Virus record (IMG/VR): IMGVR_UViG_3300031134_000596 | Length of the DNA: 64,000 nt | From: an uncultured virus (IMG/VR IMGVR_UViG_3300031134_000596) | Lineage: Duplodnaviria; Heunggongvirae; Uroviricota; Caudoviricetes | Strand: one strand, 5' to 3' | Shown: positions 6,123 to 43,335 of the stretch, in pieces | How positions within the stretch are numbered: position 1 is the first letter of the stretch | Layout: the number at the start of each line of letters is the position of its first letter | Notes under the pieces: generated by a model | What the model was told of the DNA's origin: nothing | Database searches by the model: none | What the model saw: only the letters and a program-made list of their open reading frames with translations | Program-made: the position numbers and the translations under genes

Positions 6123-6683
6123 TTAGCTCACTGACTCTAAAAACTGAACCATATCTTTTTGAATGTCGGCAACTTGACGGTCACCGTCAAACAGAACACT
6201 TTGACCAGTTTTAGAGTAATGATTCAACACTGGGTCCATGGTTCGAGTGTAGATATTCATACGCTCTTGAATTACTTCCTGGGTATCATCTGCTCGACCA
6301 CCGCTTTTTGCCCGGTTGAGAAGACGTTCAACACATGCAGTCTCAGCTACCTCAATGTTGAGAACATAATCAATTCTGATGCTCTCGTCTTGAAGGAAAT
6401 GCACCTGATTCAGAGTACGAGGATACCCGTCAAGAATGAAGCCATTGCTACAGTCGGCTTCCTGTAGCCGCTCTTTTACAACCTGGTTGGTGATGTCATC
6501 AGAAGTGTACTGCCCAGCTTTCATCGATTCTGTGATGATTTTGCCTAAAGGCGTCTGACGCTCCACGTGGTCACGGAAGATGTCTCCTGTAGAAATATGG
6601 GGAATGTTGAAATGTCCAGCCAACAGCTTAGCCTGGGTACCTTTCCCCGAACCTGGTCTCCCAGCGAAGATGAGGTTGTACAT
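6123..6683 (-). CDS. adk: Adenylate kinase (short LID)
   Basis: GRPGSGKGTQA P-loop, HISTGDIFR, GFILDGYPRT, RADD. Confidence 0.95.
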   Translation of the reverse strand: MYNLIFAGRPGSGKGTQAKLLAGHFNIPHISTGDIFRDHVERQTPLGKIITESMKAGQYTSDDITNQVVKERLQEADCSNGFILDGYPRTLNQVHFLQDESIRIDYVLNIEVAETACVERLLNRAKSGGRADDTQEVIQERMNIYTRTMDPVLNHYSKTGQSVLFDGDRQVADIQKDMVQFLESVS

Positions 6684-9324: not shown

Positions 9325-9737
9325 CAGATACCTCCGACTGTCAAGTAGCCTAAGAAAATTACTAATGGTGCCAACACATTAACCGTACATAAAGGCACGA
9401 TTACCCACAGATTAGGTTTCATGACGTAAGGGTTGTACCTCATGTCACCAGTGACTCCGCTATACCGGAGAACAATCTCTTGGTATCTCTTCCTTAGAAG
9501 TTCAATACTGAGCGACACAACTGTCATGGACAAAGAGAGGAACGCGAAAAGGATGATGGCGAGAACAGCCAGGAAGCCTTCAACTGGAGCGTTACTGGGG
9601 AAACCGAAAACTCCGAAGAATATGATAATGCTGAATGCAGAGAAAACAGCAGCAACAACAGCTAACGACAATGAAGAGATGCGTGAAGGCGGATTCTTGG
9701 GAGGCAGCATCAACGCTGATTGGGAAGGCATGCTCAT
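9324..9737 (-). CDS. Membrane protein (3 TM)
   Basis: Hydrophobic ORF; CCGATA 9 nt before ATG. Confidence 0.6.
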   Translation of the reverse strand: MSMPSQSALMLPPKNPPSRISSLSLAVVAAVFSAFSIIIFFGVFGFPSNAPVEGFLAVLAIILFAFLSLSMTVVSLSIELLRKRYQEIVLRYSGVTGDMRYNPYVMKPNLWVIVPLCTVNVLAPLVIFLGYLTVGGI

Positions 9738-9785
9738 AATGAAGAATATCGGGTCACGGCAACTTTTGGTATAGAATCACTGCTT

Positions 9786-10358
9786 GTGAGCAAATTATAT
9801 TTCCGACATAGTGCAATGAATGCAGGTAAAAGCACAAATCTTCTTCAAGCTGCCTACAACTATGAAGAGCGTGGTCAGCGAGTTATTATCGCTAAACCCA
9901 GCATCGATACCAAAAGTGATCGTGTCTTATCTCGTTTAGGGGTGTCAGCTGAAGTGAACTGGCATGTGACGCCTGAAGTGGATGTCCGAGAGCTCCTTCG
10001 CCAGGAGACTTCCAAAGTGGACTGTATCCTTGTGGATGAAGCTCAATTCCTTTCACCCGAGCAGGTGGATCAGTTCTTCTACATTGCAGTCCAGGAAGAC
10101 ATTCCGGTTTTAGCTTACGGAATTCGTAGCGACTTTGCTACAAAATCTTTCCCTGGTTCGATGCGTCTTCTGGAGATTGCTCATTCCTTGGAGGAGATGA
10201 AAACCATCTGCCGTTGTGGACGTAAAGCGTTGTTCAACGGCAGAAAAATCGATGGTGAATTCGTCAAAGAAGGTTCCCAGGTAGCTATCGATGGCCAGCA
10301 AGCTGAATATGAATCACTCTGCGGAAACTGCTACATCAAATTCTTAGGCTGGTCATAA
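9786..10358 (+). CDS. tdk: Thymidine kinase
   Basis: SAMNAGKST, ILVDEAQFL, YGIRSDF, C-terminal CRCG...C..C; GTG start just after a TAGAAT -10 (probably leaderless). Confidence 0.95.
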   Translation: MSKLYFRHSAMNAGKSTNLLQAAYNYEERGQRVIIAKPSIDTKSDRVLSRLGVSAEVNWHVTPEVDVRELLRQETSKVDCILVDEAQFLSPEQVDQFFYIAVQEDIPVLAYGIRSDFATKSFPGSMRLLEIAHSLEEMKTICRCGRKALFNGRKIDGEFVKEGSQVAIDGQQAEYESLCGNCYIKFLGWS

Positions 10359-14719: not shown

Positions 14720-15484
14720 TTAGAAAAGCTTCAGGAAGTCCTGCTCCATGTAAGCTCGCGTGGCGTCCTTGGACACCCAACGGCTTCGAGTGACAGTCGT
14801 CGGAGCATCAGCAGGGCGACGCACACCTGCAGGAACAGCCTGGGCTGCATCCTGCTCGAACGTCTCCTTGAACGCCACACGACCGTTGAAGAAGCCCTCA
14901 GGAAGCTTCTCGTAAGGCGTACCCTCCAGAAGCCGCAGACGGTCCTTGGAGGAGACACTCATCAGGCTCTTGTGGGAGTGCAGCACGTTAGCTGCCATCG
15001 TCACAGCGTTCTTCTGAGCATCGAAACGACGCCAACGCACGTACTCATCCACCTCGTCCACATCAGCAAGCGTGTGAACACGAGCATCGAACACAGGAAT
15101 CTGACCGACTCCATCAAACTTAAGAGCCTGCATGAACAGAGCAGTCACAGTTGCAGCACCGATGGAAAGCATCTTGTCGACACGACCACCGAACCACATC
15201 TGGCTGTTTTCACCAGCAAGGTCTGAGAAGACGATGCTGATTTCATCCGACTGAGTGTAACCAGCGATGGCTCCAGGGATGGTCGCAGCCATCTTACGGG
15301 TCACTTCGTCCATGACGCCCATGAAGTTCAGGTCGTAAGGCTTCTCGAAACGCTTGGTGAACGTGGAGAAGTTCTTACCGTCAAAACGGATGACAGCGTA
15401 AGTCTTCTCAGGGAGGTAGCGGAAAGAGTCCTTCTCCAGACCCTTGAACTTCACTCCATCAGGGAGCATGTTGTTATCAGACAT
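14720..15484 (-). CDS. thg1: tRNA-His guanylyltransferase Thg1-like (3'-5' polymerase)
   Basis: VIRFDGKNFSTFT, YTQSDEISI, WFGGRVDK, PVFDAR, WRRFDAQKN. Confidence 0.92.
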   Translation of the reverse strand: MSDNNMLPDGVKFKGLEKDSFRYLPEKTYAVIRFDGKNFSTFTKRFEKPYDLNFMGVMDEVTRKMAATIPGAIAGYTQSDEISIVFSDLAGENSQMWFGGRVDKMLSIGAATVTALFMQALKFDGVGQIPVFDARVHTLADVDEVDEYVRWRRFDAQKNAVTMAANVLHSHKSLMSVSSKDRLRLLEGTPYEKLPEGFFNGRVAFKETFEQDAAQAVPAGVRRPADAPTTVTRSRWVSKDATRAYMEQDFLKLF

Positions 15485-15794
15485 TAGCCTTCTCTTCTGT
15501 GTTGCGTGCCATGAGCTGAAGCCATAGCAGGTCATAAGTTCCTGAATCGACAAGCATTCGCTCATCGTTGTTCAAATCGTACACGTAAAACGCTCCGATG
15601 TCCAGCTGCTTGTCTGCAGGGAAAGCGTCATACCATGCAGCAAACTCGTCAAGAGTGTCCCAGCCGTCCAGACCAGGGAACATGCAGCGACCGTTCTCGT
15701 CATTGTCCGTGACGTTTTCGCCGTGAATCTCTTCGTCAAGGTAAGAGTCCCAGCCGGCAGCATAAGCGTAGTAACGCTTCTCATCAGTAGTCAT
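15477..15794 (-). CDS. Hypothetical acidic protein
   Basis: ORF directly after a TTGACA-17-TAATGT promoter, overlapping the thg1 start. Confidence 0.65.
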   Translation of the reverse strand: MTTDEKRYYAYAAGWDSYLDEEIHGENVTDNDENGRCMFPGLDGWDTLDEFAAWYDAFPADKQLDIGAFYVYDLNNDERMLVDSGTYDLLWLQLMARNTEEKANV

Positions 15795-19729: not shown

Positions 19730-20218
19730 TTAGAACGATGAAGGTATGCTTTCATTTTGAGCATGCGGCAGTTGCTCATTCAGTTCAGCCACCAAAACAC
19801 GAGCTTTTTGAAGGGCTTCTCCAGCAGTTGCCCCATAAGTTGAATACAGCCAACCCAATTCGTGATTCGACATGTCATCTTTGAGTGACTCAGGTACTTT
19901 AGTGCCTTCGAGAACAATCTGCATCGACGGAGACTGGTTGTACGAATAAACACGGTCGGCAACCGGAACAATCTCTCCTGATTCGTCCATCAGGAAACGT
20001 GATACTTCCACTTTGAACTGAGGCACATAGCGAATGTCAGTTTCTGTGTTCAGTTCCTGCTGCCGAACAACCCATAAACCGTCAGGGATTTCGTTAGCTC
20101 TTTCCTGAGCGTTCAACGCATCACATACAGATGCAGCAACATCCAAGTCAGAGAAAAATGGGTGATGATAGTGAACCATGTCACCGTCATTCATCTCAAC
20201 TACGAAAATATCAGCCAT
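19730..20218 (-). CDS. Hypothetical protein, tandem paralog
   Basis: F.D...A..VCDALN ... W.V ... YGATAGEALQKA. Confidence 0.65.
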   Translation of the reverse strand: MADIFVVEMNDGDMVHYHHPFFSDLDVAASVCDALNAQERANEIPDGLWVVRQQELNTETDIRYVPQFKVEVSRFLMDESGEIVPVADRVYSYNQSPSMQIVLEGTKVPESLKDDMSNHELGWLYSTYGATAGEALQKARVLVAELNEQLPHAQNESIPSSF

Positions 20219-20261
20219 TCAGGGTTCCTTAGATATATGGTTATATCCAAGTATATCAGAC

Positions 20262-20699
20262 TCAGCTGACCAAAGAGAGAACAGGCACTTGAGCTCGGTT
20301 GAGTTTCTCCGCAGCAGCTATAGCTTTAGTTTGAACTTCTTTCTCTGTACGACCGTAGACTGTAGCTGACCAGTACTTCCATAACGAGTCAGGTTCGCTG
20401 ATTTTATCCTCAGGCAGAGGTGTGCCGGCTGGAACTAACGTAATTTTTGGTTCTTGTGAGCTGGGAGTGTATTTCTTGCTGAAGGGTGCAATACCAACCT
20501 GCTGGCACACTTGAGCAACATACTCTTTAGCGTCCTCACGAACTGGCGTGGTAACAATACCCCAGTTGTCAGACCCAGTTGCTTCGTTCAAAGCTTTACA
20601 AGCAGACTTCGCTGTGTCTTCATTGGTGTAAGCAATGTGCTTGATTGTCGAGTTGCAAGGGCCGTTCAGGTTAGTGACAGTGTAGATAAGGTCAGACAT
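20262..20699 (-). CDS. Hypothetical protein, tandem paralog
   Basis: YTNEDTAKSACKALN ... WGI ... YGRTEKEVQTKA. Confidence 0.65.
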   Translation of the reverse strand: MSDLIYTVTNLNGPCNSTIKHIAYTNEDTAKSACKALNEATGSDNWGIVTTPVREDAKEYVAQVCQQVGIAPFSKKYTPSSQEPKITLVPAGTPLPEDKISEPDSLWKYWSATVYGRTEKEVQTKAIAAAEKLNRAQVPVLSLVS

Positions 20700-20788
20700 T
20701 GATGTTTTGTTTCTTTCAAAGAGGGGGACAAAACACTTATCGGATTTTTTGGTCAATTCTTTGACACTGTTTTGGTTTCTGACTCAAA

Positions 20789-21316
20789 TCACGAACGACG
20801 TAAGGCTTCCTCGAACTGCTCATCGTCAGCGACAGTGATTCCGTGTGTGCGGTTCACCTGAATGGCAAGCTCCACAGCTGACTGCTTCGCTTCTTCATAG
20901 GTACGGCTCGACACGACGTAAGTCCAGTGTTCATTACGAGCATGAGGAGGGAACTCAGCTGTCTCGGGAAGCTCCAACTCTTCAGGAAACAGCAACACAT
21001 TTTCTACATAACCTGCTGGCTCATAACGTGAACGCTCTGCGCTCCAGGAGACCCGCCACATAACAACAGGGGAGAAAGATGTTGAATCCTGAATGAGGTA
21101 AACCTCGCGGATGCTCCAGAGTTCAGTAGGGAAATCTGTGTCCCTGTCCTGAGGCCCAATTGCTGCGTTCAATGCATCACGTACTGATTCAGCAGTCTGC
21201 TGGTTCTCGTAGGTGAGAGTATGCAAGAACACAGGGTCAGGATGCACAACTTCATAGGTCTTCTTGTTACGAGGAGGTGCACCAAAAGCCTGGAAGAAAG
21301 TATTAGGGATAGCCAT
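20789..21316 (-). CDS. Hypothetical protein, tandem paralog
   Basis: YENQQTAESVRDALN ... WSI ... SSRTYEEAKQSA. Confidence 0.65.
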   Translation of the reverse strand: MAIPNTFFQAFGAPPRNKKTYEVVHPDPVFLHTLTYENQQTAESVRDALNAAIGPQDRDTDFPTELWSIREVYLIQDSTSFSPVVMWRVSWSAERSRYEPAGYVENVLLFPEELELPETAEFPPHARNEHWTYVVSSRTYEEAKQSAVELAIQVNRTHGITVADDEQFEEALRRS

Positions 21317-21378
21317 GAGTTTTCCAATGTTCGTTTGATCGTTGTAGCTGGGATGTAGGACAAATGAAACGAGCTGGC

Positions 21379-21924
21379 TCAGACCTTCAAAGGAAGGGCA
21401 TGAGCCAGCTCGATGGGGGACAGACTGATGAGTAGTTCACGGAATTCGGGGTACGGCAGGTGTGCATGCTCCATAATGAAAGCAATACGCTCTTCAGGCA
21501 GTTCGGGTGCGTAACGACCTGAAACCAGCATGTCCTGAAGGTTGAACAAAGCCCTCAGAGCGTGACGTTGCTTCCTGAAACCAGTCTGGGATGCGAACTT
21601 GGTGATGATTCGCTCGTACGCAGGAACAACTTCATAACCAGCCTGGTAAGAAGCCCGCAGGCTGCCCAGCAAGTCGACCAGAGGCTCAGCAGCAAACATG
21701 GCGTCAAGAGCCTGATGGGAACCAGCAGCTGCTCGCTCCATGAAGTGCGAAAGAGTCATCTGGGTAGTGTCGATGCCGTCCACGATGGTCTGACGGACCT
21801 GACGGGGAGCATCACGAGTTTCAATCATGAAAGGCTCAGTGTGGACTTCAAAATAGTCGTCGTCGGAAGCGTCTGTGGCGTAACCATACAGACGTGAACC
21901 AGCTTGCACTCGAAGCAACAACAT
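21379..21924 (-). CDS. DNA pol beta-superfamily nucleotidyltransferase
   Basis: GSRLYGYATDASDDD motif. Confidence 0.8.
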   Translation of the reverse strand: MLLLRVQAGSRLYGYATDASDDDYFEVHTEPFMIETRDAPRQVRQTIVDGIDTTQMTLSHFMERAAAGSHQALDAMFAAEPLVDLLGSLRASYQAGYEVVPAYERIITKFASQTGFRKQRHALRALFNLQDMLVSGRYAPELPEERIAFIMEHAHLPYPEFRELLISLSPIELAHALPLKV

Positions 21925-21991
21925 GATGCTCTCCTTTCATATGAAAAGGACTATACCTGATTAGGTGATGACTGTCAAGTATCGGGTCAGT

Positions 21992-22537
21992 TTAGGCTGC
22001 GACTTCAAGAACGGCAGGGGAAACGAATTCAGCCCAGTCCAAATTCTTGAACGTCTCATAGTCAACCCCTAAGTCCTCAGCCTTGTCATCAGCGGTGGAC
22101 ACAAGAGTCCATTCAGCCGTCAGAGCGAACTGGTAAGGAATGAGGAATTCAAGATTTTCAGCTTCGATAATAGCCTCAGGGTCATGCAAGGGAATGGAAT
22201 CTTCCCAGTAATTACGAATGACATCCTTAGCAGCTTCTGAAGCAATACCGTTGTCATCATAAAGGTAGGACTCGGCAGCTTCAAATAAGCTCAACCAGTG
22301 ACCATGAACAACAACCTCATCAGGAATTTCAATTCTCCAGATGTCTGCATCACGCTTACTGAACAGTCGGTAATGCTGCCAAGCTTCAGCCTGCTTTAAA
22401 CTGGCGGAAGCGAACACGCTTTCAGAACGAGGGGATTTACCTTCCAGGGACTCAGGGCAGGCAGAATCGAACCAGACAGCACCTGTGTGCTTCAGCTGTG
22501 CTAACGGTGTGATACCACCTGACCTGTAAAGGAACAT
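21992..22537 (-). CDS. Putative ADP-ribosyltransferase-fold protein
   Basis: LYRSG ... R.ESVFAS ... IWRIEI ... YW ... EFLIP; resembles the C-domain of 40604-41329. Confidence 0.5.
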   Translation of the reverse strand: MFLYRSGGITPLAQLKHTGAVWFDSACPESLEGKSPRSESVFASASLKQAEAWQHYRLFSKRDADIWRIEIPDEVVVHGHWLSLFEAAESYLYDDNGIASEAAKDVIRNYWEDSIPLHDPEAIIEAENLEFLIPYQFALTAEWTLVSTADDKAEDLGVDYETFKNLDWAEFVSPAVLEVAA

Positions 22538-22600
22538 ACTTGTGACTTTATACCATAACTATGGGTTAACGCAAGTTATCAGGAAAGAAAACATGACCCC

Positions 22601-23224
22601 TTAACTGGGCGCACTATCTGTCAGGTAAATCCAGGAAAGCTCAGCCGGTTCGTTAGGATAGAAGTAGTCAGGAACGAAATCAGGGTCACTTGTAATTTTG
22701 ATGTAGTCGTTTCTATATTCAGTCCCTTCAGCTCCCCCATAAAGAACCCAAGGGTTGCCTATTGAAGAAATCTCTTCAGAAAGGGCGTCCCCGTCGCATA
22801 AAGTGTAGTCATCCTGATCTGCTTCATGCTCAGTCAAACATTTCACATCAAATTGAGGTCCGACACGTTCCTGGACCCAACCCACTAAAGCATGGTCATG
22901 ATGAGGGTCTTGTTCCAATTCGGAGTAAAGGTCTTCAGGAGTCTGCTGGTCTTCAATGTAATACCAGTCTACAAAACGGTCGTTGAGTTCAAGGTGGACA
23001 TTACCGTTGCTGAGGACAGTTTTCTGTGTCCCTGCAAACCATTCAAGTACTATGCTGTAGTCTTCAGGGTAGCGAGATTCTATCTCTTCATGCTCTGCTG
23101 TGACAGTCTCTTTGACCGCTTCACATGTTTCGTGGTTCAGGCAGGTAAAATCAGCAACCAGACGCTGAGCAGTAATAGTCAAAGACAGGTAATGATCGTC
23201 AGCTTCTGGTTTGAGGTTAATCAT
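22601..23224 (-). CDS. Hypothetical acidic protein with internal duplication
   Basis: DFTCLNHE/DVKCLTEHE and WFAGTQKT/LYGGAEGT half-repeats. Confidence 0.6.
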   Translation of the reverse strand: MINLKPEADDHYLSLTITAQRLVADFTCLNHETCEAVKETVTAEHEEIESRYPEDYSIVLEWFAGTQKTVLSNGNVHLELNDRFVDWYYIEDQQTPEDLYSELEQDPHHDHALVGWVQERVGPQFDVKCLTEHEADQDDYTLCDGDALSEEISSIGNPWVLYGGAEGTEYRNDYIKITSDPDFVPDYFYPNEPAELSWIYLTDSAPS

Positions 23225-30881: not shown

Positions 30882-31916
30882 CTACTTGGTCTCAGCGATA
30901 AGTCGTTCATCAACCATCTGGATAATAGGGAAGTTCATGTGGTCCCCTTTTTTGAACTTACCCCATCGCTGGTAGCTTTCATCGCTCTGTGAATAACCTC
31001 TACTGTATTGGCTGTTGAGGTCTTTCCTGTCTGAAGCGAACTCAAAACGCTGTGAACGGCGACTACCTGTGATACGAAACTTCGTGTTACGAGGAAGGAG
31101 TATCTCCTTCTCCAGGGATTGGATGTCTCCTCCTCTGGATTTTTCCTCCGGCTGAAGGGAAGCTCCTTGTTTTGAGAGTATCTCCATGACTACATAACCA
31201 TGGTTTTTGTTCCCACCGTTCCTGTCGTGCATGTGAGCCATGATGAATTCAGGGTCAGCTGTAGTTGACATGAACCCTTTCTCTTTGAACGCTTCTCCTG
31301 TTTTGAAGTACCGTTCGATGTATTCGTTAGGTGACACTCCGGCTGGCACTCTAAAGAAACGGTACAGCTTGCGAGGACCTTCAGGCTCCTTCGCGGAAGC
31401 TAAAGCTTCGTCTAAGTTCTTGATATCCCGGGGAACATTCTCCGCTAAGTCTTCTCGATAGAAAGGATTCTCTCGAATCAGCTCTGGAAGTCCTTTCTTT
31501 CTCAGAACAGTGTTCACTAATTCGAATAAAGTCATTGTGTAGCGTCTTACGCTGTTTGACTGGTCTCGGGTGAGGCTATTAGCCCACTCTTCTTGCTCTT
31601 CAAAAAGCTTAGCTGTGTGGGCAAGACGTTCTTCAGCATCAAGACCAGTTATAGCTTCACGTGATTTCTTACTCAGCAAATCCAGCAGTTCTTGAGGTAC
31701 AGACTTCTGATTCGGCTTCTCCTGGAAAGGTAACGTCTCAGGAAGGTGCTCTCTCACCAAGTCCTTGTGGGCTTCTTTCCAACTCTGGACAGCTTTTTCG
31801 GCAAGACGTTCTTTGTTGTACTCATTGCGATGCTTGTAACGTGCTTTTCTTCTGACATTAGCTATGGCGTCTGCGTATTCACAGCGTTGTCCGCCATCTG
31901 CTTTGGCTTTGCACAT
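30882..31916 (-). CDS. ADP-ribosyltransferase (R-S-E clade, ExE type; VIP2/Alt-like) with N-terminal Cys motif
   Basis: RRYT...F..VN..LR, KLYR, GFMSTT, LEKEILLPRNTKFRI; N-terminal MCKAKADGGQRC. Confidence 0.85.
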   Translation of the reverse strand: MCKAKADGGQRCEYADAIANVRRKARYKHRNEYNKERLAEKAVQSWKEAHKDLVREHLPETLPFQEKPNQKSVPQELLDLLSKKSREAITGLDAEERLAHTAKLFEEQEEWANSLTRDQSNSVRRYTMTLFELVNTVLRKKGLPELIRENPFYREDLAENVPRDIKNLDEALASAKEPEGPRKLYRFFRVPAGVSPNEYIERYFKTGEAFKEKGFMSTTADPEFIMAHMHDRNGGNKNHGYVVMEILSKQGASLQPEEKSRGGDIQSLEKEILLPRNTKFRITGSRRSQRFEFASDRKDLNSQYSRGYSQSDESYQRWGKFKKGDHMNFPIIQMVDERLIAETK

Positions 31917-32144
31917 AGGATTCCTTTTTCTCCGTCTTTTGACATACTCTTTATCGGTCAATTCCTTATGTTTGCAGGGAATTTAGAGGGCTCGATTATG
32001 AAACAATACTGATTATATAGGAACTTTATCTTGACTCCAATCACGCCCATACTTTGCTATAAGTGCATATATGAGTGGTTTTAGATACCCTGGTGCGATC
32101 AGATCAAGACTGGTAGATTGAAGCTCTATGAAGGAGAGAATGCA

Positions 32145-40603: not shown

Positions 40604-41329
40604 TCATCGTTGATTATAGTTTAAAGGTTTTTCGTTGAGCATGTTCTCAAGCTCTTGAGAACCATTTTGTTCATATGCTCTTTGGCTAACCTTTTCAGGT
40701 TTCACAATGGACACAGAACGCATGTCTTTTTCTGCGGAGAGGAGTAATTCCCATTCTTTTGGGCTGTACTTTTTGGGTTGCTGTTTGGCTCGTTTCATGT
40801 ATTCACGCATGGTGATACCTGAATCCCAGTATTCTTTGTGATAGGCTTCGTTGTCATCCCCGGAGGAAGCTTTTTCCCAAGCATGGATGGAGTAAACATA
40901 TGTGGAGTCAATGTCTACTCTGATTTCACGGACCTGGATATCGATAACATTTGAATGCCATTTACCTCGAACCCATCGCGTTACTCCGCCAAGAGTTGGT
41001 GAAGCGAAAACACCGTCAGTTCTTCCTTGACGACCTTCTGGCTTCAGACTGTCAGACTTCACGTAAGAATCTTTTTCCACTCCACGCTCTGTTGGGGCAA
41101 GAGGTTCACCTGAACGATAAACAGCAACGGTGGTTGTTCCGTCAACTTCTTTTCGCACATCCCAGGATGCTTCAAAATCTGGCGTAACGATGGCTTGGAA
41201 TTTGAATTCTTCTTCTCGTTCTTTCATCTCGTTCATGAACACAATCCGCTGACGGTAAGCTTTGCCATGCAGCCGGCAGGTAGCAGGATTCTTTTTACGG
41301 CATTTACCGCGAAGGTCTTGTGATCGCAT
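40604..41329 (-). CDS. CRxKxPxxCRxHG-motif protein with putative ART-fold domain
   Basis: CRKKNPATCRLHG; VYRSG ... R.DGVFASP ... YW ... WELLL. Confidence 0.65.
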   Translation of the reverse strand: MRSQDLRGKCRKKNPATCRLHGKAYRQRIVFMNEMKEREEEFKFQAIVTPDFEASWDVRKEVDGTTTVAVYRSGEPLAPTERGVEKDSYVKSDSLKPEGRQGRTDGVFASPTLGGVTRWVRGKWHSNVIDIQVREIRVDIDSTYVYSIHAWEKASSGDDNEAYHKEYWDSGITMREYMKRAKQQPKKYSPKEWELLLSAEKDMRSVSIVKPEKVSQRAYEQNGSQELENMLNEKPLNYNQR

Positions 41330-41388
41330 GAAAGATTTCTAACAGCTAACAAAAACAACGCCCTACCAAATCAGGTAGAGCGTTGTTT

Positions 41389-42015
41389 TTAGTTCCAGTA
41401 GCCAACGTGGCGCTGCTGGCGGGTGTTCACTGCGTCGTAGTCGTCACCCCACAGGTCGTCCCCGTCGTTGTAGTTCTCGACCATGGCTTCCAGCATGAGG
41501 CGTTCGGTTGCTCGCTGGCTGGAGTGGTACTGGGTCTTCAAGTCCTTCTTGAAGGGGCGAGCTGCTCGGCGGTGGGAGTCAACCCAGGTGTAGCACAGTT
41601 CCTGCAGCTCGTCTCCGACGTAACGGACAGGTCGGACCTGCTCGTTTTCTGCGGTGCAGTGGTCGGGGCGGTGACCTACGAGGGTCTTCTCGCGGAGAGG
41701 ACGCTCGTAGGTGGTGACGATTTCGACGGACTCCAAGTTGAAGAAGTTGTACCAGCCCAGTTCGCCGCTTTCACGCAGCTTGAAGTACTCGGTGGCGGGG
41801 TAGACCTTGCTGGTGCGGTTGCGGAAGACCACGCGGTAGCCCTTCACGGGAGGTCGCTCGACGGTCTCCATGACCTGGTTGCCGTCAGCGTCCTTCACGG
41901 GCAGCCAGTGGTAGACTTCCTCCCCCGCCAGGTGGTGGTAGTGGGAGACGCTACGCAGTTCGTTCTTGTCGTTAGCACGCACCCAGTACGGGCGGTCCTT
42001 GAAAGTTCTCGACAT
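41389..42015 (-). CDS. MSRTFKDRP-family protein, paralog 1 (GC-rich)
   Basis: MSRTFKDRPYWV ... PDHCT ... YHSSQRATE ... TRQQRHVGYWN. Confidence 0.8.
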   Translation of the reverse strand: MSRTFKDRPYWVRANDKNELRSVSHYHHLAGEEVYHWLPVKDADGNQVMETVERPPVKGYRVVFRNRTSKVYPATEYFKLRESGELGWYNFFNLESVEIVTTYERPLREKTLVGHRPDHCTAENEQVRPVRYVGDELQELCYTWVDSHRRAARPFKKDLKTQYHSSQRATERLMLEAMVENYNDGDDLWGDDYDAVNTRQQRHVGYWN

Positions 42016-42191
42016 ATTCTTTTCTACCTTTCGGTAGATAGCTCTCTGAAAGCCCCTTGTGGACTTTCCGGTCTATCTACTTATGAAGGTAGCGAATGCG
42101 GTTCGACATGTAATTCAATCCTTAGATAATGATTTTGGTAAGCTTTGATTGCTTATGATTCTACTATAGTTCATGTCTGAGGTCTTGTCAA
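42016..42191 (-). promoter_or_regulatory. sigmaA promoter + uORF + SD-sequestering hairpin
   Basis: TTGACA(42191)-17-TATAGT; uORF 42109-42077 MSNRIRYLHK*; hairpin arms 42092-42073 and 42041-42024. Confidence 0.75.
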
Positions 42192-42201
42192 CCTCAGAAT
42201 C

Positions 42202-42900
42202 TCAATCCCACCAACCGTTGTGCTTTTTCTGGCGAGTGTTCACAGATTCATACTCGTCATCCCACATGTCTTCAACGTTGGATGCATTTTTGGTAGCTTC
42301 ACGAAGGAGGTTGCTTTCAGTGCGGCGAGCTTTAGAGTGGTACTGGCGGCGGTCCTTTTTGTCAGGACGGTTTCTGTAGTAACGCTCCCAAGGTCGCTGG
42401 ATGACAGGGAAGCAAAGATGAGTCTCGTCAGGAGTCCAAAGTCCTTCGCTGGCTTTAGTCAAAGGAACATCCATGGTGCAGTGGTCAGGGTATGTTCCGA
42501 CCACACGGAACTCACGTTCGATGGTTTTTCTCATGAACGTCTGATTGATGTAAACCACTTCTTCGATGTTGGCAATCAGCTCATCAGTTTTATGACTGCG
42601 AGCATGAGTGGTGAAGAAGTAGTCCCCTCTGCGTCCCACTTCAGTGCTTCGACCATTGAAGATGTAGAATTCCTTGGAGGAAACATATCTCCATGTTTTG
42701 TCTCTGAGAAGAAAAGCGTACTGAAAAGTCATCGGAGTTTCGATGTACTTGTAGTCAGGGTTGCCGTTCTCATCAACAGCTTCAGCCCAGCGTCTACGGG
42801 GACGACCAGCGTAGTGGTGGTTATGCTTGATGTATCGTCCACGGCTGTTCAAGTCATTGCTTTTGACCCACAGTGGACGGTCTTTGAATGTGTTAGACAT
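42202..42900 (-). CDS. MSRTFKDRP-family protein, paralog 2
   Basis: MSNTFKDRPLWV ... PDHCT ... YHSKARRTE ... TRQKKHNGWWD. Confidence 0.8.
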   Translation of the reverse strand: MSNTFKDRPLWVKSNDLNSRGRYIKHNHHYAGRPRRRWAEAVDENGNPDYKYIETPMTFQYAFLLRDKTWRYVSSKEFYIFNGRSTEVGRRGDYFFTTHARSHKTDELIANIEEVVYINQTFMRKTIEREFRVVGTYPDHCTMDVPLTKASEGLWTPDETHLCFPVIQRPWERYYRNRPDKKDRRQYHSKARRTESNLLREATKNASNVEDMWDDEYESVNTRQKKHNGWWD

Positions 42901-43100
42901 TCGTTCCTACCTTATAGGTAGGCAGTTCATATTAGGTCCCGAGTGGACCTGAAAGACTACCTACCTATGTAGGTAGAAAAATTTGTGAATTCTTCATAGA
43001 TCATCAGTTCCGCTTTCTTCTATCACCAACTATTGTAGGTGATTGCCAACTATTATTGGCATGTATCAATCATTATACGCTCAAACGTATTCTAAGTCAA
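42901..43100 (-). promoter_or_regulatory. sigmaA promoter + uORF(s) + SD-sequestering hairpin
   Basis: TTGACT(43100)-17-TATAAT; uORFs 43004-42957 and 42997-42965; hairpin arms 42976-42957 and 42925-42907. Confidence 0.75.
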
Positions 43101-43110
43101 TAAATTTGGT

Positions 43111-43335
43111 CTATGCAGCTTCCATGTTGAACCCGCCATGACGCAAAACATCATCACTGATGCGAACAACAGCATCACTTGATTCATCAGCAAACTCACC
43201 AATGAAAGAACCCTGGTGATGGTCAAGAAGGCGGACGCGGCGAACATCAGTACCTCGTTTAGGCACAAGTACAATGACAGGCTTTTCTCCGTTACGCACC
43301 TGTACGATCAGTTTGTTCACAAGATCAGTGTTCAT
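43111..43335 (-). CDS. Hypothetical protein
   Basis: SD AAGGAG. Confidence 0.6.
   Translation of the reverse strand: MNTDLVNKLIVQVRNGEKPVIVLVPKRGTDVRRVRLLDHHQGSFIGEFADESSDAVVRISDDVLRHGGFNMEAA

Follow-up and report, generated by a model that had tools for sequence, protein, structure and literature searches.

A handful of resistance genes and plasmid replicons are well-known examples of ribosome-binding site (RBS) masking under the control of short upstream open reading frames (uORFs). In ermC, the leader ORF ermCL has its own Shine-Dalgarno (SD) sequence, and the leader RNA pairs as 1:2 and 3:4 to hide the SD of the gene; when a ribosome is held on segment 1, 2:3 forms and segment 4 is freed. 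The leaders of cat-86 and cmlA contain a single SD-hiding hairpin. A leader ORF of about nine codons supplies its 5' arm with its distal codons, and a ribosome paused in the leader melts this hairpin. In the plasmid replicons R1 (tap-repA) and ColIb-P9 (repY-repZ), translation of the leader ORF is required to open the structure that hides the RBS of the main gene. The trpL and hisL attenuators and the T-box leaders sense tRNA charging, through the ribosome or through the tRNA.

Here we describe an apparently undescribed translational control element in a 64,000-nt stretch of DNA from an uncultured virus (IMG/VR IMGVR_UViG_3300031134_000596), hereafter called the window. Two tandem genes encode paralogs that share 34% identity (E 1e-32) and all of the motifs by which the initial annotation had recognized them as a pair. 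We propose that each paralog forms a cassette of its own promoter, leader and gene, in which the leader acts as a cis-acting translational gate, a reading to which we assign a probability of roughly 60%. The cassettes are laid out as follows:

43100-43072, minus strand: sigma-70-like promoter of copy 2, TTGACT-17-TATAAT
42901..43065, minus strand: leader 2, about 165 nt, with the transcription start placed from the -10 box
42900-42202, minus strand: coding sequence of copy 2, 232 amino acids, N-terminus MSNTFKDRPLWV
42176..42198, minus strand: candidate hairpin UCUGAGGU-UGACAAG-ACCUCAGA, read from the sequence, directly 3' of the copy 2 stop
42191-42163, minus strand: sigma-70-like promoter of copy 1, TTGACA-17-TATAGT
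42016..42156, minus strand: leader 1, about 141 nt
42015-41389, minus strand: coding sequence of copy 1, 208 amino acids, N-terminus MSRTFKDRPYWV
41351..41389, minus strand: terminator-like bidirectional hairpin 3' of copy 1, with the apex CUACCU-GAUU-UGGUAG again

Each promoter agrees with the consensus at 11 of 12 positions, confirming that both copies have a promoter of their own. The -35 box of promoter 1 lies, as read from the sequence, in the loop of the hairpin at 42176..42198. Palindromes of the pattern CTACC-N-GGTAG occur four times in the window, against 0.1 expected, and all of them fall within 41363-42976. The coding sequence of copy 1 is foreign to the window in composition (GC 0.61, GC3 0.82). 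Metatranscriptome contigs from four runs span the genes and leaders at 90-99% likeness, possibly through DNA carry-over and with no transcript ends.

Within the leaders, the elements of the proposed gate are the following:

43004-42957, minus strand: uORF of copy 2, longer frame, MIYEEFTNFSTYIGR, stop UAG, overlapping the shorter frame; weak SD (GGA only)
42997-42965, minus strand: uORF of copy 2, shorter frame, MKNSQIFLPT, stop UAG; weak SD (GGA only)
42957..42976, minus strand: 5' arm of leader 2 (segments 1 and 2), CUACCUACAUAGGUAGGUAG; a stop in every frame
42934..42950, minus strand: inner hairpin of leader 2, AGGUCC-ACUCG-GGACCU, from fold prediction
42905..42925, minus strand: 3' arm of leader 2 with the SD AAGGUAGGA (segments 3 and 4); predicted partner of the 5' arm
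42109-42077, minus strand: uORF of copy 1, MSNRIRYLHK, 10 codons, stop UAG; SD AAGGA 9 nt upstream
42073..42092, minus strand: 5' arm of leader 1, CUACCUU-CAUAA-GUAGAUAG, segments 1 and 2
42048..42068, minus strand: inner hairpin of leader 1, GAAAGUCC-ACAAG-GGGCUUUC, -9.3 kcal/mol
42024..42041, minus strand: 3' arm of leader 1, CUAUCUAC-CGA-AAGGUAG, segments 3 and 4 with the SD; predicted partner of the 5' arm

All three uORFs proposed by the initial annotation, each ending in UAG inside the 5' arm, are present. Its account of copy 2 needs correction in that there are two candidate frames and a weak SD; because this SD is only GGA, our pipeline, which requires at least four SD nucleotides, missed the uORF. 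In both leaders, the run UARGUAGRUAG provides a stop in every one of the three frames.

Throughout, the leader structures are thermodynamic predictions. Leader 1 folds at -38.5 kcal/mol (z -3.25) and leader 2 at -62.8 kcal/mol (z -6.63), values that none of 200 shuffles equaled in either case. In both, the 5' arm is predicted to pair with the AAGGUAG SD region, enclosing the inner hairpin. Because each arm is also a palindrome, the 3' arm alone could hide the SD: its self-hairpin is predicted at -8.3 kcal/mol in leader 1 (CUACC-GAAA-GGUAG, with a GAAA tetraloop) and at -9.7 kcal/mol in leader 2 (CCUACCU-AUA-AGGUAGG), and that of the 5' arm at -2.4 and -11.0 kcal/mol, respectively. In the two window leaders the nested fold is nevertheless favored over the summed local hairpins (-28.7 versus -20.0 and -40.2 versus -29.2 kcal/mol). 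In an alignment of 10 related leaders, 88.6% of the cells in three nested helices are paired, and changes on both sides affect 12 of the 23 pairs, compared to two to three in slid controls; the values for paired cells and two-sided changes were reached by zero to one of 500 shuffles. Six of the eight pairs of the leader 1 inner hairpin carry two-sided changes across relatives, and in the inner hairpin of leader 2 one relative converts U-A to U-G at 42937. Folding and covariation thus bear out the nested SD-hiding hairpin claimed for both leaders. A covariance model of the window subgroup scores 42898-42984 at 89 bits and 42015-42100 at 90.3 bits; it matched only its own seed sequences, with no other leader among 95 sources and no further copy within the window.

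The same arms could in principle serve transcription attenuation, with the hairpin as a terminator that a ribosome on the uORF would block. A pattern scan indeed marks as terminator-like the hairpin that the 5' arm of leader 2 forms locally (42977-42960) ahead of UAGUCUUUCA. Leader 1 lacks a U tract after its hairpin, which counts against terminators of the U-tract kind, and family-wide the 3' strand extends to the SD and AUG, so that a terminator tail has no room. We therefore regard attenuation as very unlikely and return to masking of the RBS.

We collected loci from genome and metagenome collections with a degenerate DNA pattern for the conserved N-terminus of the protein, yielding 93 leader clusters built from at least 124 unique loci; being related by descent, the clusters are not independent samples. 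A uORF that has an SD and no more than 30 codons precedes the gene in 81 of the 93, versus 40.1 +/- 4.5 (maximum 53) in 100 dinucleotide shuffles. At least five pairs between the uORF end and the main RBS form in 60 of 77 leaders tested, compared to 37.3 in shuffles, so that such pairing is frequent in shuffled sequence too. Cognate duplexes of this kind average -11.86 kcal/mol versus -8.16 for non-cognate ones, a difference that none of 10,000 permutations reached, with shuffled-arm and same-locus controls at -8.5 and -8.7 kcal/mol. The local fold from 18 nt before the uORF stop to the AUG has a median z of -3.6 and lies below -2 in 65 of 77 leaders. In the 60 positive leaders, the two arms lie at approximately -14 to +10 relative to the uORF stop (5') and -25 to 0 relative to the AUG (3'), and 58 of them also contain the inner hairpin. 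The stop precedes the main AUG by 17-114 nt, mostly 32-71 nt, and in 45 of 60 leaders the RBS of the uORF is less structured than that of the main gene (openness 0.46 versus 0.36, Wilcoxon p 5e-5). As a control with real sequence, the complete design was found before 1 of the 61 other ORFs of the window versus 51 of the 93 family clusters. Recurrence of one design before dozens of distant relatives identifies the leader as a real element; its anatomy, conservation, covariation and specificity for this gene family are what the analysis shows. The homolog comparison proposed in the initial annotation thus upheld both hairpin and uORF, and with them the assignment to the translational attenuators, the kind in which a uORF is combined with an SD-sequestering hairpin.

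The same design occurs in a cultured phage, Microbacterium phage Pumpernickel. Its gp171 is preceded by a 23-codon uORF ending in UAG, UGUUCC pairs with GGAACA in the SD region, and the inner hairpin is present. The 42 clusters that lack the complete design are in part pipeline errors, as judged by eye, and in part real exceptions, namely a group of phages of about 111 kb (L007, L010-L018) and the group L032/L036. Twelve clusters have no uORF by our rule. At uORF-less loci the gene often directly follows a long upstream ORF (TAGATG in L042, TAAGGAG in L009), a replacement that fits a need for an upstream translating ribosome. Known RNA families offered no counterpart: Rfam 15 gave no match in the window at gathering thresholds, and chance-level matches only (best E 0.26) in 41300-43200 at E up to 5. 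In the parts of the literature that our searches covered, no paper contained the N-terminal motif, and keywords for uORFs, anti-SD pairing and coupling led to general papers, none on this element.

This anatomy suggests how the gate may work. A short uORF would be translated from its own SD, with its last codons and stop forming the 5' strand of a long helix whose 3' strand is the RBS of the main gene, and the small inner hairpin would act both as a clamp and as a spacer. At rest, the RNA would keep the main SD paired; a ribosome on the distal uORF would displace the 5' strand and leave the main SD free during that time only. In the window leaders, the palindromic arms would divide the helix into four segments (1, CUACCU; 2, GUAGRUAG; 3, CUAYCUAC; 4, AAGGUAG with the SD). 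These could rest as 1:4 and 2:3 or, alternatively, as 1:2 and 3:4. A ribosome that covers segment 1 only would keep 2:3 paired and segment 4 free (ON), whereas one at the stop would cover segments 1 and 2 and allow 3:4 to re-form (OFF). Output would then depend on how long ribosomes dwell in the middle to late part of the uORF.

We simulated a ribosome by masking -12 to +13 around the P site, an assumed footprint on which the results depend. In copy 1, the unpaired probability of the main RBS rises from a baseline of 0.50 to 0.70-0.77 with the ribosome at uORF codons 3-6, and in copy 2 from 0.21 to 0.49-0.58 at codons 5-7; at peak exposure, 4-7 codons thus separate the P site from the stop. 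A ribosome that has reached the stop leaves exposure near baseline (0.54 in copy 1, 0.31 in copy 2) because the freed 3' arm folds on itself, and in these simulations exposure of the SD requires that the mask cover segment 1 and no other segment. The earlier proposal that slow termination at the uORF stop opens the SD is therefore not supported. Family-wide, the gain peaks at +0.135 with the P site 3-4 codons before the last sense codon, and the average opening is modest (baseline 0.36, gain +0.08 to +0.135). The model thus favors a leader in which a ribosome on the distal uORF would unmask the main RBS. We infer that the uORF is translated, that the ribosome opens the SD, and that the arrangement is put to regulatory use rather than to constitutive coupling only.

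In relatives, the uORF of copy 1 has the counterparts MSNAIRYLHK, MTYIRYLHK and MNFIRYLHK. Among close relatives the uORF peptide varies and so does even its frame (WIN1, L114, WIN2), so that an arrest peptide of ermCL or catL type is not supported. Across the family, uORFs range from 1 to 27 codons and their peptides are unrelated. The only positional biases are an Arg as the last codon in 16 of 59 and a His at -2 in 10 of 57. At least two frames have stops near the uORF stop in 30 of 60 leaders, a count that lacks a rigorous control. The stop itself is UAG in 43 of 60 positive leaders (72%), versus about 20-27% in controls; UAG is read only by RF1. Two further readings of the uORFs were rejected. 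Sensing of rare Arg codons seemed to fit their frequency in uORFs (0.71, versus 0.23 in main genes), but the composition of the leaders in all frames already yields 0.61. Read-through or suppressor coupling finds no support in the next in-frame stop, which is patternless.

The slippery heptamer A-AAU-UUU noted in copy 2 is present, but nothing supports the -1 frameshift that had been read into it. Together with the UAG at the hairpin base, which recalls T4 gene 60, where a UAG also lies at the base of a hairpin, the heptamer would be the signature of recoding, by a -1 shift or a gene 60-like hop that fuses the uORF or changes its phase. Since each of the three frames meets a stop within 9 nt, a frameshift would alter only five residues. 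Leader 2 has no matched take-off and landing codons, an in-frame UAG stands before the AUG, and the variable uORF length, the next in-frame stops and the random frame of the uORF relative to the main ORF (22, 23 and 15 of 60) all argue against a fixed recoding event, which we find hardly credible.

What, then, is being gated? A word-index homolog search returned only a 99% identical copy, and a profile search collected 163 representatives (E <= 1e-3) of an unnamed family with the signature MSRTxKDRPxWV. Its members share an N-terminal MS(R)TxKDxPxWV, an HxH, a C(T) and a further C, and a C-terminal helix ending in ..H.GWW, and both window proteins possess all of these features. S2, T4, K6, D7, P9, H26, C141 and C163 are invariant in 61 sequences, and H28 is present in at least 90%; by sequence, the family is basic and probably zinc-binding. 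Neither window protein matched Pfam, PHROG, NCBIfam, PADLOC or the PDB sequence profile, and the Atlas returned viral hypothetical proteins only. Two AF2 models were built, with a pLDDT of 81 (copy 2) and 72. Foldseek gave a best E of 0.6 in the PDB and of 1.6e-3 at TM 0.15 in BFVD, and wide VIA fold searches reached Z 4.9 and 4.0 on the C-terminal helix only, so that the beta-rich N-terminal part was barely probed.

A lead comes from gene neighborhoods. Phage tRNA arrays house the family gene, which usually comes directly behind a tRNA-Arg gene. Of 70 clusters, 36 have a tRNA gene within 900 nt, for the most part on the same strand and upstream; the window contains no tRNA genes. The family, for which the searches found no matching fold, is probably tied to tRNA biology. 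The earlier suggestion that the proteins act on stalled ribosomes finds no support, and the tRNA-array location of the relatives is the only hint that the protein has a translation-related role. As an unlikely extension, the leader might sense the availability of RF1, through the UAG stop of its uORF, or of Arg-tRNA, through the frequent terminal Arg codon, for example after a host attack on tRNAs. It would thereby turn on a new-fold, zinc-binding protein whose target is tRNA-Arg or the ribosome; in their strict synteny, tRNA-Arg, leader and gene would then form a feedback module.

The tRNA neighborhood also suits an alternative in which the hairpin is an RNase III-type site or 5' stabilizer that splits the mRNA from an upstream tRNA precursor and sets its half-life. 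Upstream tRNA genes on the same strand make co-transcription likely, and the helices span 15-25 bp with internal loops, a possible resemblance to phage RNase III sites. By contrast, the window cassettes have promoters of their own without any neighboring tRNA, and processing requires neither an SD-led uORF nor a stop codon inside the helix. The 3' strand always covers the RBS, and in 59 of 60 leaders its end falls between -11 and +2 relative to the AUG, which points to control of initiation. We consider processing decidedly improbable.

RNA binding by the encoded protein is plausible given its basic character, probable zinc site and link to tRNA, and the RBS hairpin could accordingly be the operator of a repressor, perhaps this protein in an autogenous circuit, with the uORF incidental or secondary. 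Such an operator would explain why the internal loop of the window subgroup almost always contains an unpaired CAUA despite differing uORF frames, why inner-hairpin loops are biased (5 nt in 34 of 69, with 27 of these 34 beginning with A) and why the CUACC..GGUAG palindrome recurs in the terminator. Yet stem and loop sequences are wholly different between subfamilies, the subgroup covariance model finds no other leader among the 95 sources, and outside the window lineage and L111 the palindromes occur only as single matches in L065 and L073. An operator also leaves unexplained the SD-led uORFs of 81 of the 93 leaders, which end in the helix, and their frequent UAG stop. We thus think a repressor operator quite unlikely and retain the uORF-gated RBS as our preferred reading.

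Here, uORF-gated masking appears as the conserved mark of one uncharacterized phage protein family in dozens of divergent lineages, and its structure is kept while the sequence changes completely. Two regularities accompany it, the UAG bias of the uORF stop and the adjacency of the gene to tRNA-Arg. The window adds a natural modular promoter-leader cassette: its two coding sequences differ greatly in composition, yet leaders of one type precede both. With relatives such as the one in Pumpernickel in culture, the family offers a testable system for how large phages monitor or tune translation.

The element can be set against the described systems. Its tRNA-Arg neighborhood and the terminal Arg codon of some uORFs recall trpL, hisL and the T-box leaders; unlike these, the family has no runs of regulatory codons and no terminator/antiterminator pair, and Rfam gives no T-box match in the window. 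It differs from T4 gene 60 bypass in the take-off and landing match missing from leader 2 and in the random uORF frame. As in ermC, a leader ORF with its own SD (AAGGA in copy 1, weak in copy 2, found in 81 of 93 family leaders) precedes an RNA that, in the two window leaders, can adopt 1:2 and 3:4 versus 2:3 with the SD in segment 4. This four-segment feature is not general to the family, since palindromic arms are restricted to the window lineage and L111 with single L065 and L073 matches; in most other members the helix simply has two arms. Unlike ermC, the resting RNA is predicted to be most stable in the nested fold (1:4 and 2:3), no arrest peptide is conserved and the uORF frame varies in close relatives. 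No antibiotic appears to play a part, and the downstream gene encodes a phage protein with no match to an rRNA methyltransferase or resistance family in Pfam, PHROG, NCBIfam or PADLOC. Most family leaders, with the distal uORF codons as the 5' arm, rather share the geometry of cat-86 and cmlA, from which they differ by the extra inner hairpin, by the uORF stop inside the helix, mostly UAG, and by having no conserved stalling pentapeptide. Compared to tap-repA and repY-repZ, the uORF stop lies 17-114 nt before the AUG instead of adjoining it, the element belongs to a phage protein family and not to a replicon, and no antisense RNA is known for it. The likeness to these replicons fits the loci where a long upstream ORF replaces the uORF, and both this replacement and the leader architecture are compatible with a main gene whose expression would depend on translation of its leader.

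Two tandem genes on the minus strand of the window, copy 2 and copy 1, each have their own promoter and a leader of ~165 nt and ~141 nt, respectively:

43100-43072, minus strand, copy 2 promoter TTGACT-17-TATAAT (sigma-70-like, 11/12)
42900-42202, minus strand, copy 2 coding sequence (232 aa)
42191-42163, minus strand, copy 1 promoter TTGACA-17-TATAGT (sigma-70-like, 11/12)
42015-41389, minus strand, copy 1 coding sequence (208 aa)

The encoded proteins are paralogs (34% identity, E 1e-32) with the motifs MS.TFKDRP.WV, PDHCT, QYHS..R.TE and NTRQ..H.G.W in common, and both the tandem paralogy and the consensus promoters proposed in the initial annotation are confirmed. The uORFs described there are also present in the leaders, and every one of them stops at UAG inside a UARGUAGRUAG run. 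Because this run places stops in all three frames, the −1 slip postulated for the copy 2 uORF would change almost nothing, and no observation speaks for it. In the predicted folds of both leaders, three helices are nested: an outer helix between CUACCU(U/A) and AAGGUAG, the latter being the Shine-Dalgarno sequence (SD), a middle helix between GUAGRUAG and CUAYCUAC, and an inner hairpin of variable sequence. Leader 1 folds with −38.5 kcal/mol (z −3.25) and leader 2 with −62.8 kcal/mol (z −6.63); both beat all 200 of their shuffles, which upholds the claim of a bipartite hairpin that sequesters the SD around a variable inner hairpin.

Copy 1 is foreign to the window in composition. Its coding body has a GC content of 0.61 and a GC3 of 0.82 (copy 2, 0.48 and 0.54), neighboring genes have a GC3 of ~0.40, and the window overall has a GC content of 0.47. 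Leaders 1 and 2 have a GC content of 0.39 each and share their arms. Copy 1 thus looks less like the product of simple tandem duplication than like a high-GC homolog that came to sit downstream of a local-type leader; recombination may have joined the two at the conserved first codons.

Several smaller elements surround the two cassettes. The 5' part of leader 2 (43022-43061, minus strand) forms two small hairpins carrying the direct repeat A(T/C)AATAGTTGG, spaced by ~21 nt, immediately 3' of the promoter and with no counterpart in leader 1; this region could be an operator. Right after the copy 2 stop, an 8-bp hairpin (42176-42198, minus strand) holds the −35 box of the copy 1 promoter in its loop and may end or stabilize the copy 2 transcript. 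After copy 1, a terminator-like hairpin (41351-41389) bears at its apex the CUACCU...GGUAG palindrome of the leader arms. Exact CTACC-N(2-8)-GGTAG sites occur four times in the 64 kb, all inside 41363-42976.

For a family-wide comparison, loci were gathered with a degenerate DNA pattern for the protein N-terminus that required a TCN serine codon and the W-V pair, and we fetched 17 viral loci and at least 121 metagenome stretches, 80 of these with full flanks. The matches listed gave 124 unique entries, 120 with at least 150 nt upstream, and 93 leader clusters (8-mer Jaccard > 0.25) that are mutually related. uORFs were picked by a structure-blind rule (a start ATG, GTG or TTG preceded at 3-10 nt by an SD of 4 nt or more; at most 30 codons; a stop 12-130 nt upstream of the main AUG), an automated choice that is sometimes wrong. 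Among the matches listed, a uORF was found in 81 of 93 clusters, versus 40.1 ± 4.5 (maximum 53) in 100 dinucleotide shuffles.

The position of the uORF end within the predicted leader fold is likewise a family trait. For 48 of 93 clusters, global energy minimization puts the stop 5-21 nt deep in the 5' side of the terminal hairpin domain, and the local fold from 18 nt before the stop to the AUG has a median z of −3.6 (z < −2 in 65/77). Pairing of at least 5 bp between the uORF end and the last 25 nt plus AUG, seen in 60 of 77 leaders, is a weak measure on its own because shuffles reach 37.3. The inner hairpin is also present in 58 of the 60 architecture-positive leaders. Cognate arms form duplexes of −11.86 kcal/mol on average versus −8.16 for non-cognate arms, a value reached by none of 10,000 permutations (controls: shuffled arm, −8.48; same-locus upstream segment, −8.73), and the arms thus co-vary across the family. 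The 5' strand spans approximately −14 to +10 around the stop and the 3' strand approximately −25 to 0 of the AUG, therefore covering the entire ribosome binding site. Applied to real sequence as a control, the full criteria pass 1 of 61 other window ORFs, compared with 51 of the 93 family clusters among the matches listed. The design extends to gp171 of Microbacterium phage Pumpernickel, whose leader combines the UAG-terminated uORF MMNINETPSVFLNTGNSFALFRC with a helix between UGUUCC and GGAACA at the SD and with CUAGG/CCUAG as its inner hairpin. By eye, exceptions were a ~111-kb phage group, whose hairpin lies within a uORF of 15-18 codons that has no clear SD; two fetched loci (L032 and L036) with a hairpin ahead of the SD and no clear uORF; and genes right behind a long ORF (L009, L027, L115 and the second copy in L042). 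In L042, two further family members (150 and 137 aa) stand in tandem, joined by TAGATG so that the first stop abuts the second start, and the second gene lacks its own leader. Inner-hairpin loops in the 60 architecture-positive clusters measure 5 nt in 34 of 69 cases, and 27 of those 34 start with A.

Ten leaders of the window's own subgroup align well, and RNAalifold returns the three helices. In this structure 88.6% of cells are paired versus 79.3 ± 1.3 in shuffles (0/500 reach it), and 12 of 23 pairs changed on both sides, as many as in only 1 of 500 shuffles; with partner columns slid by 1-3, merely 2-3 pairs did so. Alignment of homolog upstream regions, covariation and uORF stop position thus bear out the leader architecture claimed initially. 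A covariance model of the subgroup, searched against 95 sources, matched its seed sequences only and found no third leader copy in the window; no Rfam family matches the leaders or the window. The unpaired CAUA ahead of the stop is nearly invariant in the subgroup despite differing uORF frames.

The stop codon itself is biased. The 60 architecture-positive leaders use UAG 43 times, UAA 12 times and UGA 5 times, and the other 17 uORF picks UGA 8, UAA 6 and UAG 3 times; UAG makes up 27% in shuffles, main genes at the same loci end in TGA (35), TAA (28) or TAG (16), and control picks in the window in TAA (6), TGA (5) or TAG (5). Grouping the loci by similarity of their proteins does not remove the bias (32/44 groups at 50% identity, 20/29 at 35%). 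The G of UAG is predicted to be paired in 37 of 43 leaders, and pairing alone does not explain UAG over UGA. Because UAG is read by RF1 only, a role of termination kinetics is possible. The last uORF codon encodes Arg in 16/59 and the penultimate one His in 10/57. The excess of rare Arg codons, however, fits leader composition (0.71 vs 0.61), and we do not claim tRNA sensing.

The predicted folds suggest how the leader might work. In 45 of 60 leaders, predicted accessibility is higher at the ribosome binding site of the uORF than at that of the main gene (0.46 vs 0.36, p 5e-5). We simulated a ribosome by forcing −12 to +13 around the P site to be single-stranded, a footprint that is an assumption. 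Across the family, the main-site unpaired probability of 0.36 gains up to +0.135 with the P site 3-4 codons upstream of the final sense codon, positions that are hypothetical for very short uORFs, and +0.077 with the ribosome at the stop. For copy 1, codons 3-6 bring it from 0.50 to 0.70-0.77, and it is back at 0.51-0.55 from codon 7 through the final codon; for copy 2, codons 5-7 of MKNSQIFLPT bring it from 0.21 to 0.49-0.58, and it stands at 0.31 on the final codon. The initial proposal that slow termination at the stop opens the SD is therefore unsupported for the window leaders. Exposure falls again late in the window uORFs because both arms are palindromes: the 3' arms can form the hairpins CUACC-GAAA-GGUAG (−8.3 kcal/mol) and CCUACCU-AUA-AGGUAGG (−9.7 kcal/mol), and the nested folds have −28.7 and −40.2 kcal/mol versus −20.0 and −29.2 for the summed local hairpins. 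If we number CUACCU, GUAGRUAG, CUAYCUAC and AAGGUAG/SD as segments 1 to 4, covering the whole 5' arm would let the 3' arm fold on itself and keep the SD paired; only with segment 1 covered and segment 2 free would 2 pair with 3, leaving the SD single-stranded.

From the simulated exposure and the behavior of the palindromic arms, we therefore read the element as a dwell-time gate, in which the time a ribosome spends in the distal uORF would set initiation at the main gene. Such a gate may be a true pause-responsive switch or constitutive coupling. A specific arrest peptide is unlikely because the uORF peptides, which include MT, MPL, MTW[PTY] and others ending in APAPEP or RYLHK, range from 1 to 27 codons, are dissimilar, and differ in frame among close relatives.

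The proteins behind these leaders have no match in Pfam, PHROG, NCBIfam or PADLOC. A word-index search for homologs returned a 99% identical copy as its sole match, and an exhaustive profile search 163 cluster representatives at E ≤ 1e-3, 63 of them at ≤ 1e-10. In 61 aligned sequences S2, T4, K6, D7, P9, H26, C141 and C163 are invariant and W11, V12, H28, G32, D43, G46 and R192 nearly so, and the H.H...C...C pattern points to a possible metal site; family members of 120-150 aa retain the same core. With AF2 models (pLDDT 81 and 72), Foldseek gave no convincing fold in the PDB (best E 0.6) or BFVD (best E 1.6e-3 at TM 0.15), and the best hits of a wide VIA fold search (Z 4.9 and 4.0) were confined to the C-terminal helix. 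In the Atlas, the family sits among viral hypothetical proteins. Scanning 185,579 prokaryote species (one genome each) for the N-terminus pattern gave only 3 matches, two in Micrococcales, and the only named relative is Pumpernickel gp171 (24.5% identity, annotated hypothetical).

The homologs reside among tRNA genes. Each of the six viral loci fetched with 3-kb flanks is embedded in a tRNA gene array and has tRNA-Arg upstream. Among the matches listed, 97 loci with flanks of at most 900 nt have a tRNA gene in 51 cases and tRNA-Arg in 35 (anticodons CCU, ACG, UCU, CCG or UCG), the latter upstream in 31/35 and on the same strand in 35/35; at the cluster level the counts are 36/70 and 22/70. In Pumpernickel, the gene is flanked by an RtcB-like ligase, a homing endonuclease and tRNA-Ile/tRNA-Cys. 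These observations concern loci L001-L006, L007-L103 and L145. On a 358-kb contig (L065), a CUA-anticodon, amber-reading tRNA (266-338; ARAGORN label tRNA-Pyl) lies ~560 nt upstream of a homolog whose leader has no clear uORF. ARAGORN also reports 'tRNA-???' genes with irregular anticodon loops ('ag' or 'tt') beside homologs:

L021, 608-680
L023, 525-597
L101, 1239-1311
L059, 260-329

The proposal that the proteins act on stalled ribosomes is not supported, the tRNA context being its one hint.

No tRNA genes were found in the window, which encodes, at 14720-15565, 21379-21924, 6123-6683, 9720-10358 and 30882-31961 jointly, a tRNA-His guanylyltransferase-like protein (PHROG E 2.9e-53), a nucleotidyltransferase, an exonuclease/kinase-like protein, a thymidine kinase and an Alt-like ADP-ribosyltransferase, an RNA/tRNA-repair flavor reminiscent of the surroundings of the Pumpernickel homolog. 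Further products are R2K ATP-grasp, RCC1-repeat, M23 peptidase, LytR-CpsA-Psr and PcfJ-like proteins; most ORFs of the 64-kb window lack a known identity. Six consecutive head-to-tail ORFs at 19730-23224 (minus strand; 162, 164, 175, 181, 181 and 207 aa), one matching a nucleotidyltransferase PHROG, may be a paralog array. No phage record is near-identical to the window. Among the matches listed, the tandem pair recurs near-identically on 140-kb and 789-kb metagenome contigs (L062/L063 and L067/L068); DNA copies come from phyllosphere, plant and straw metagenomes. In four metatranscriptome runs, contigs at 90-99% likeness span the two genes and their leaders, which attests only to presence in RNA libraries.

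Taken together, the comparative and modeled evidence argues for a real and conserved uORF-plus-hairpin translational control leader that is specific to an uncharacterized phage tRNA-island protein family and apparently undescribed. The element is a variant of known ribosome-mediated attenuation and coupling. The attenuator-like geometry recognized initially is borne out. The pairing logic of the window leaders is that of the four-segment erm attenuator, except that their ground state is nested.
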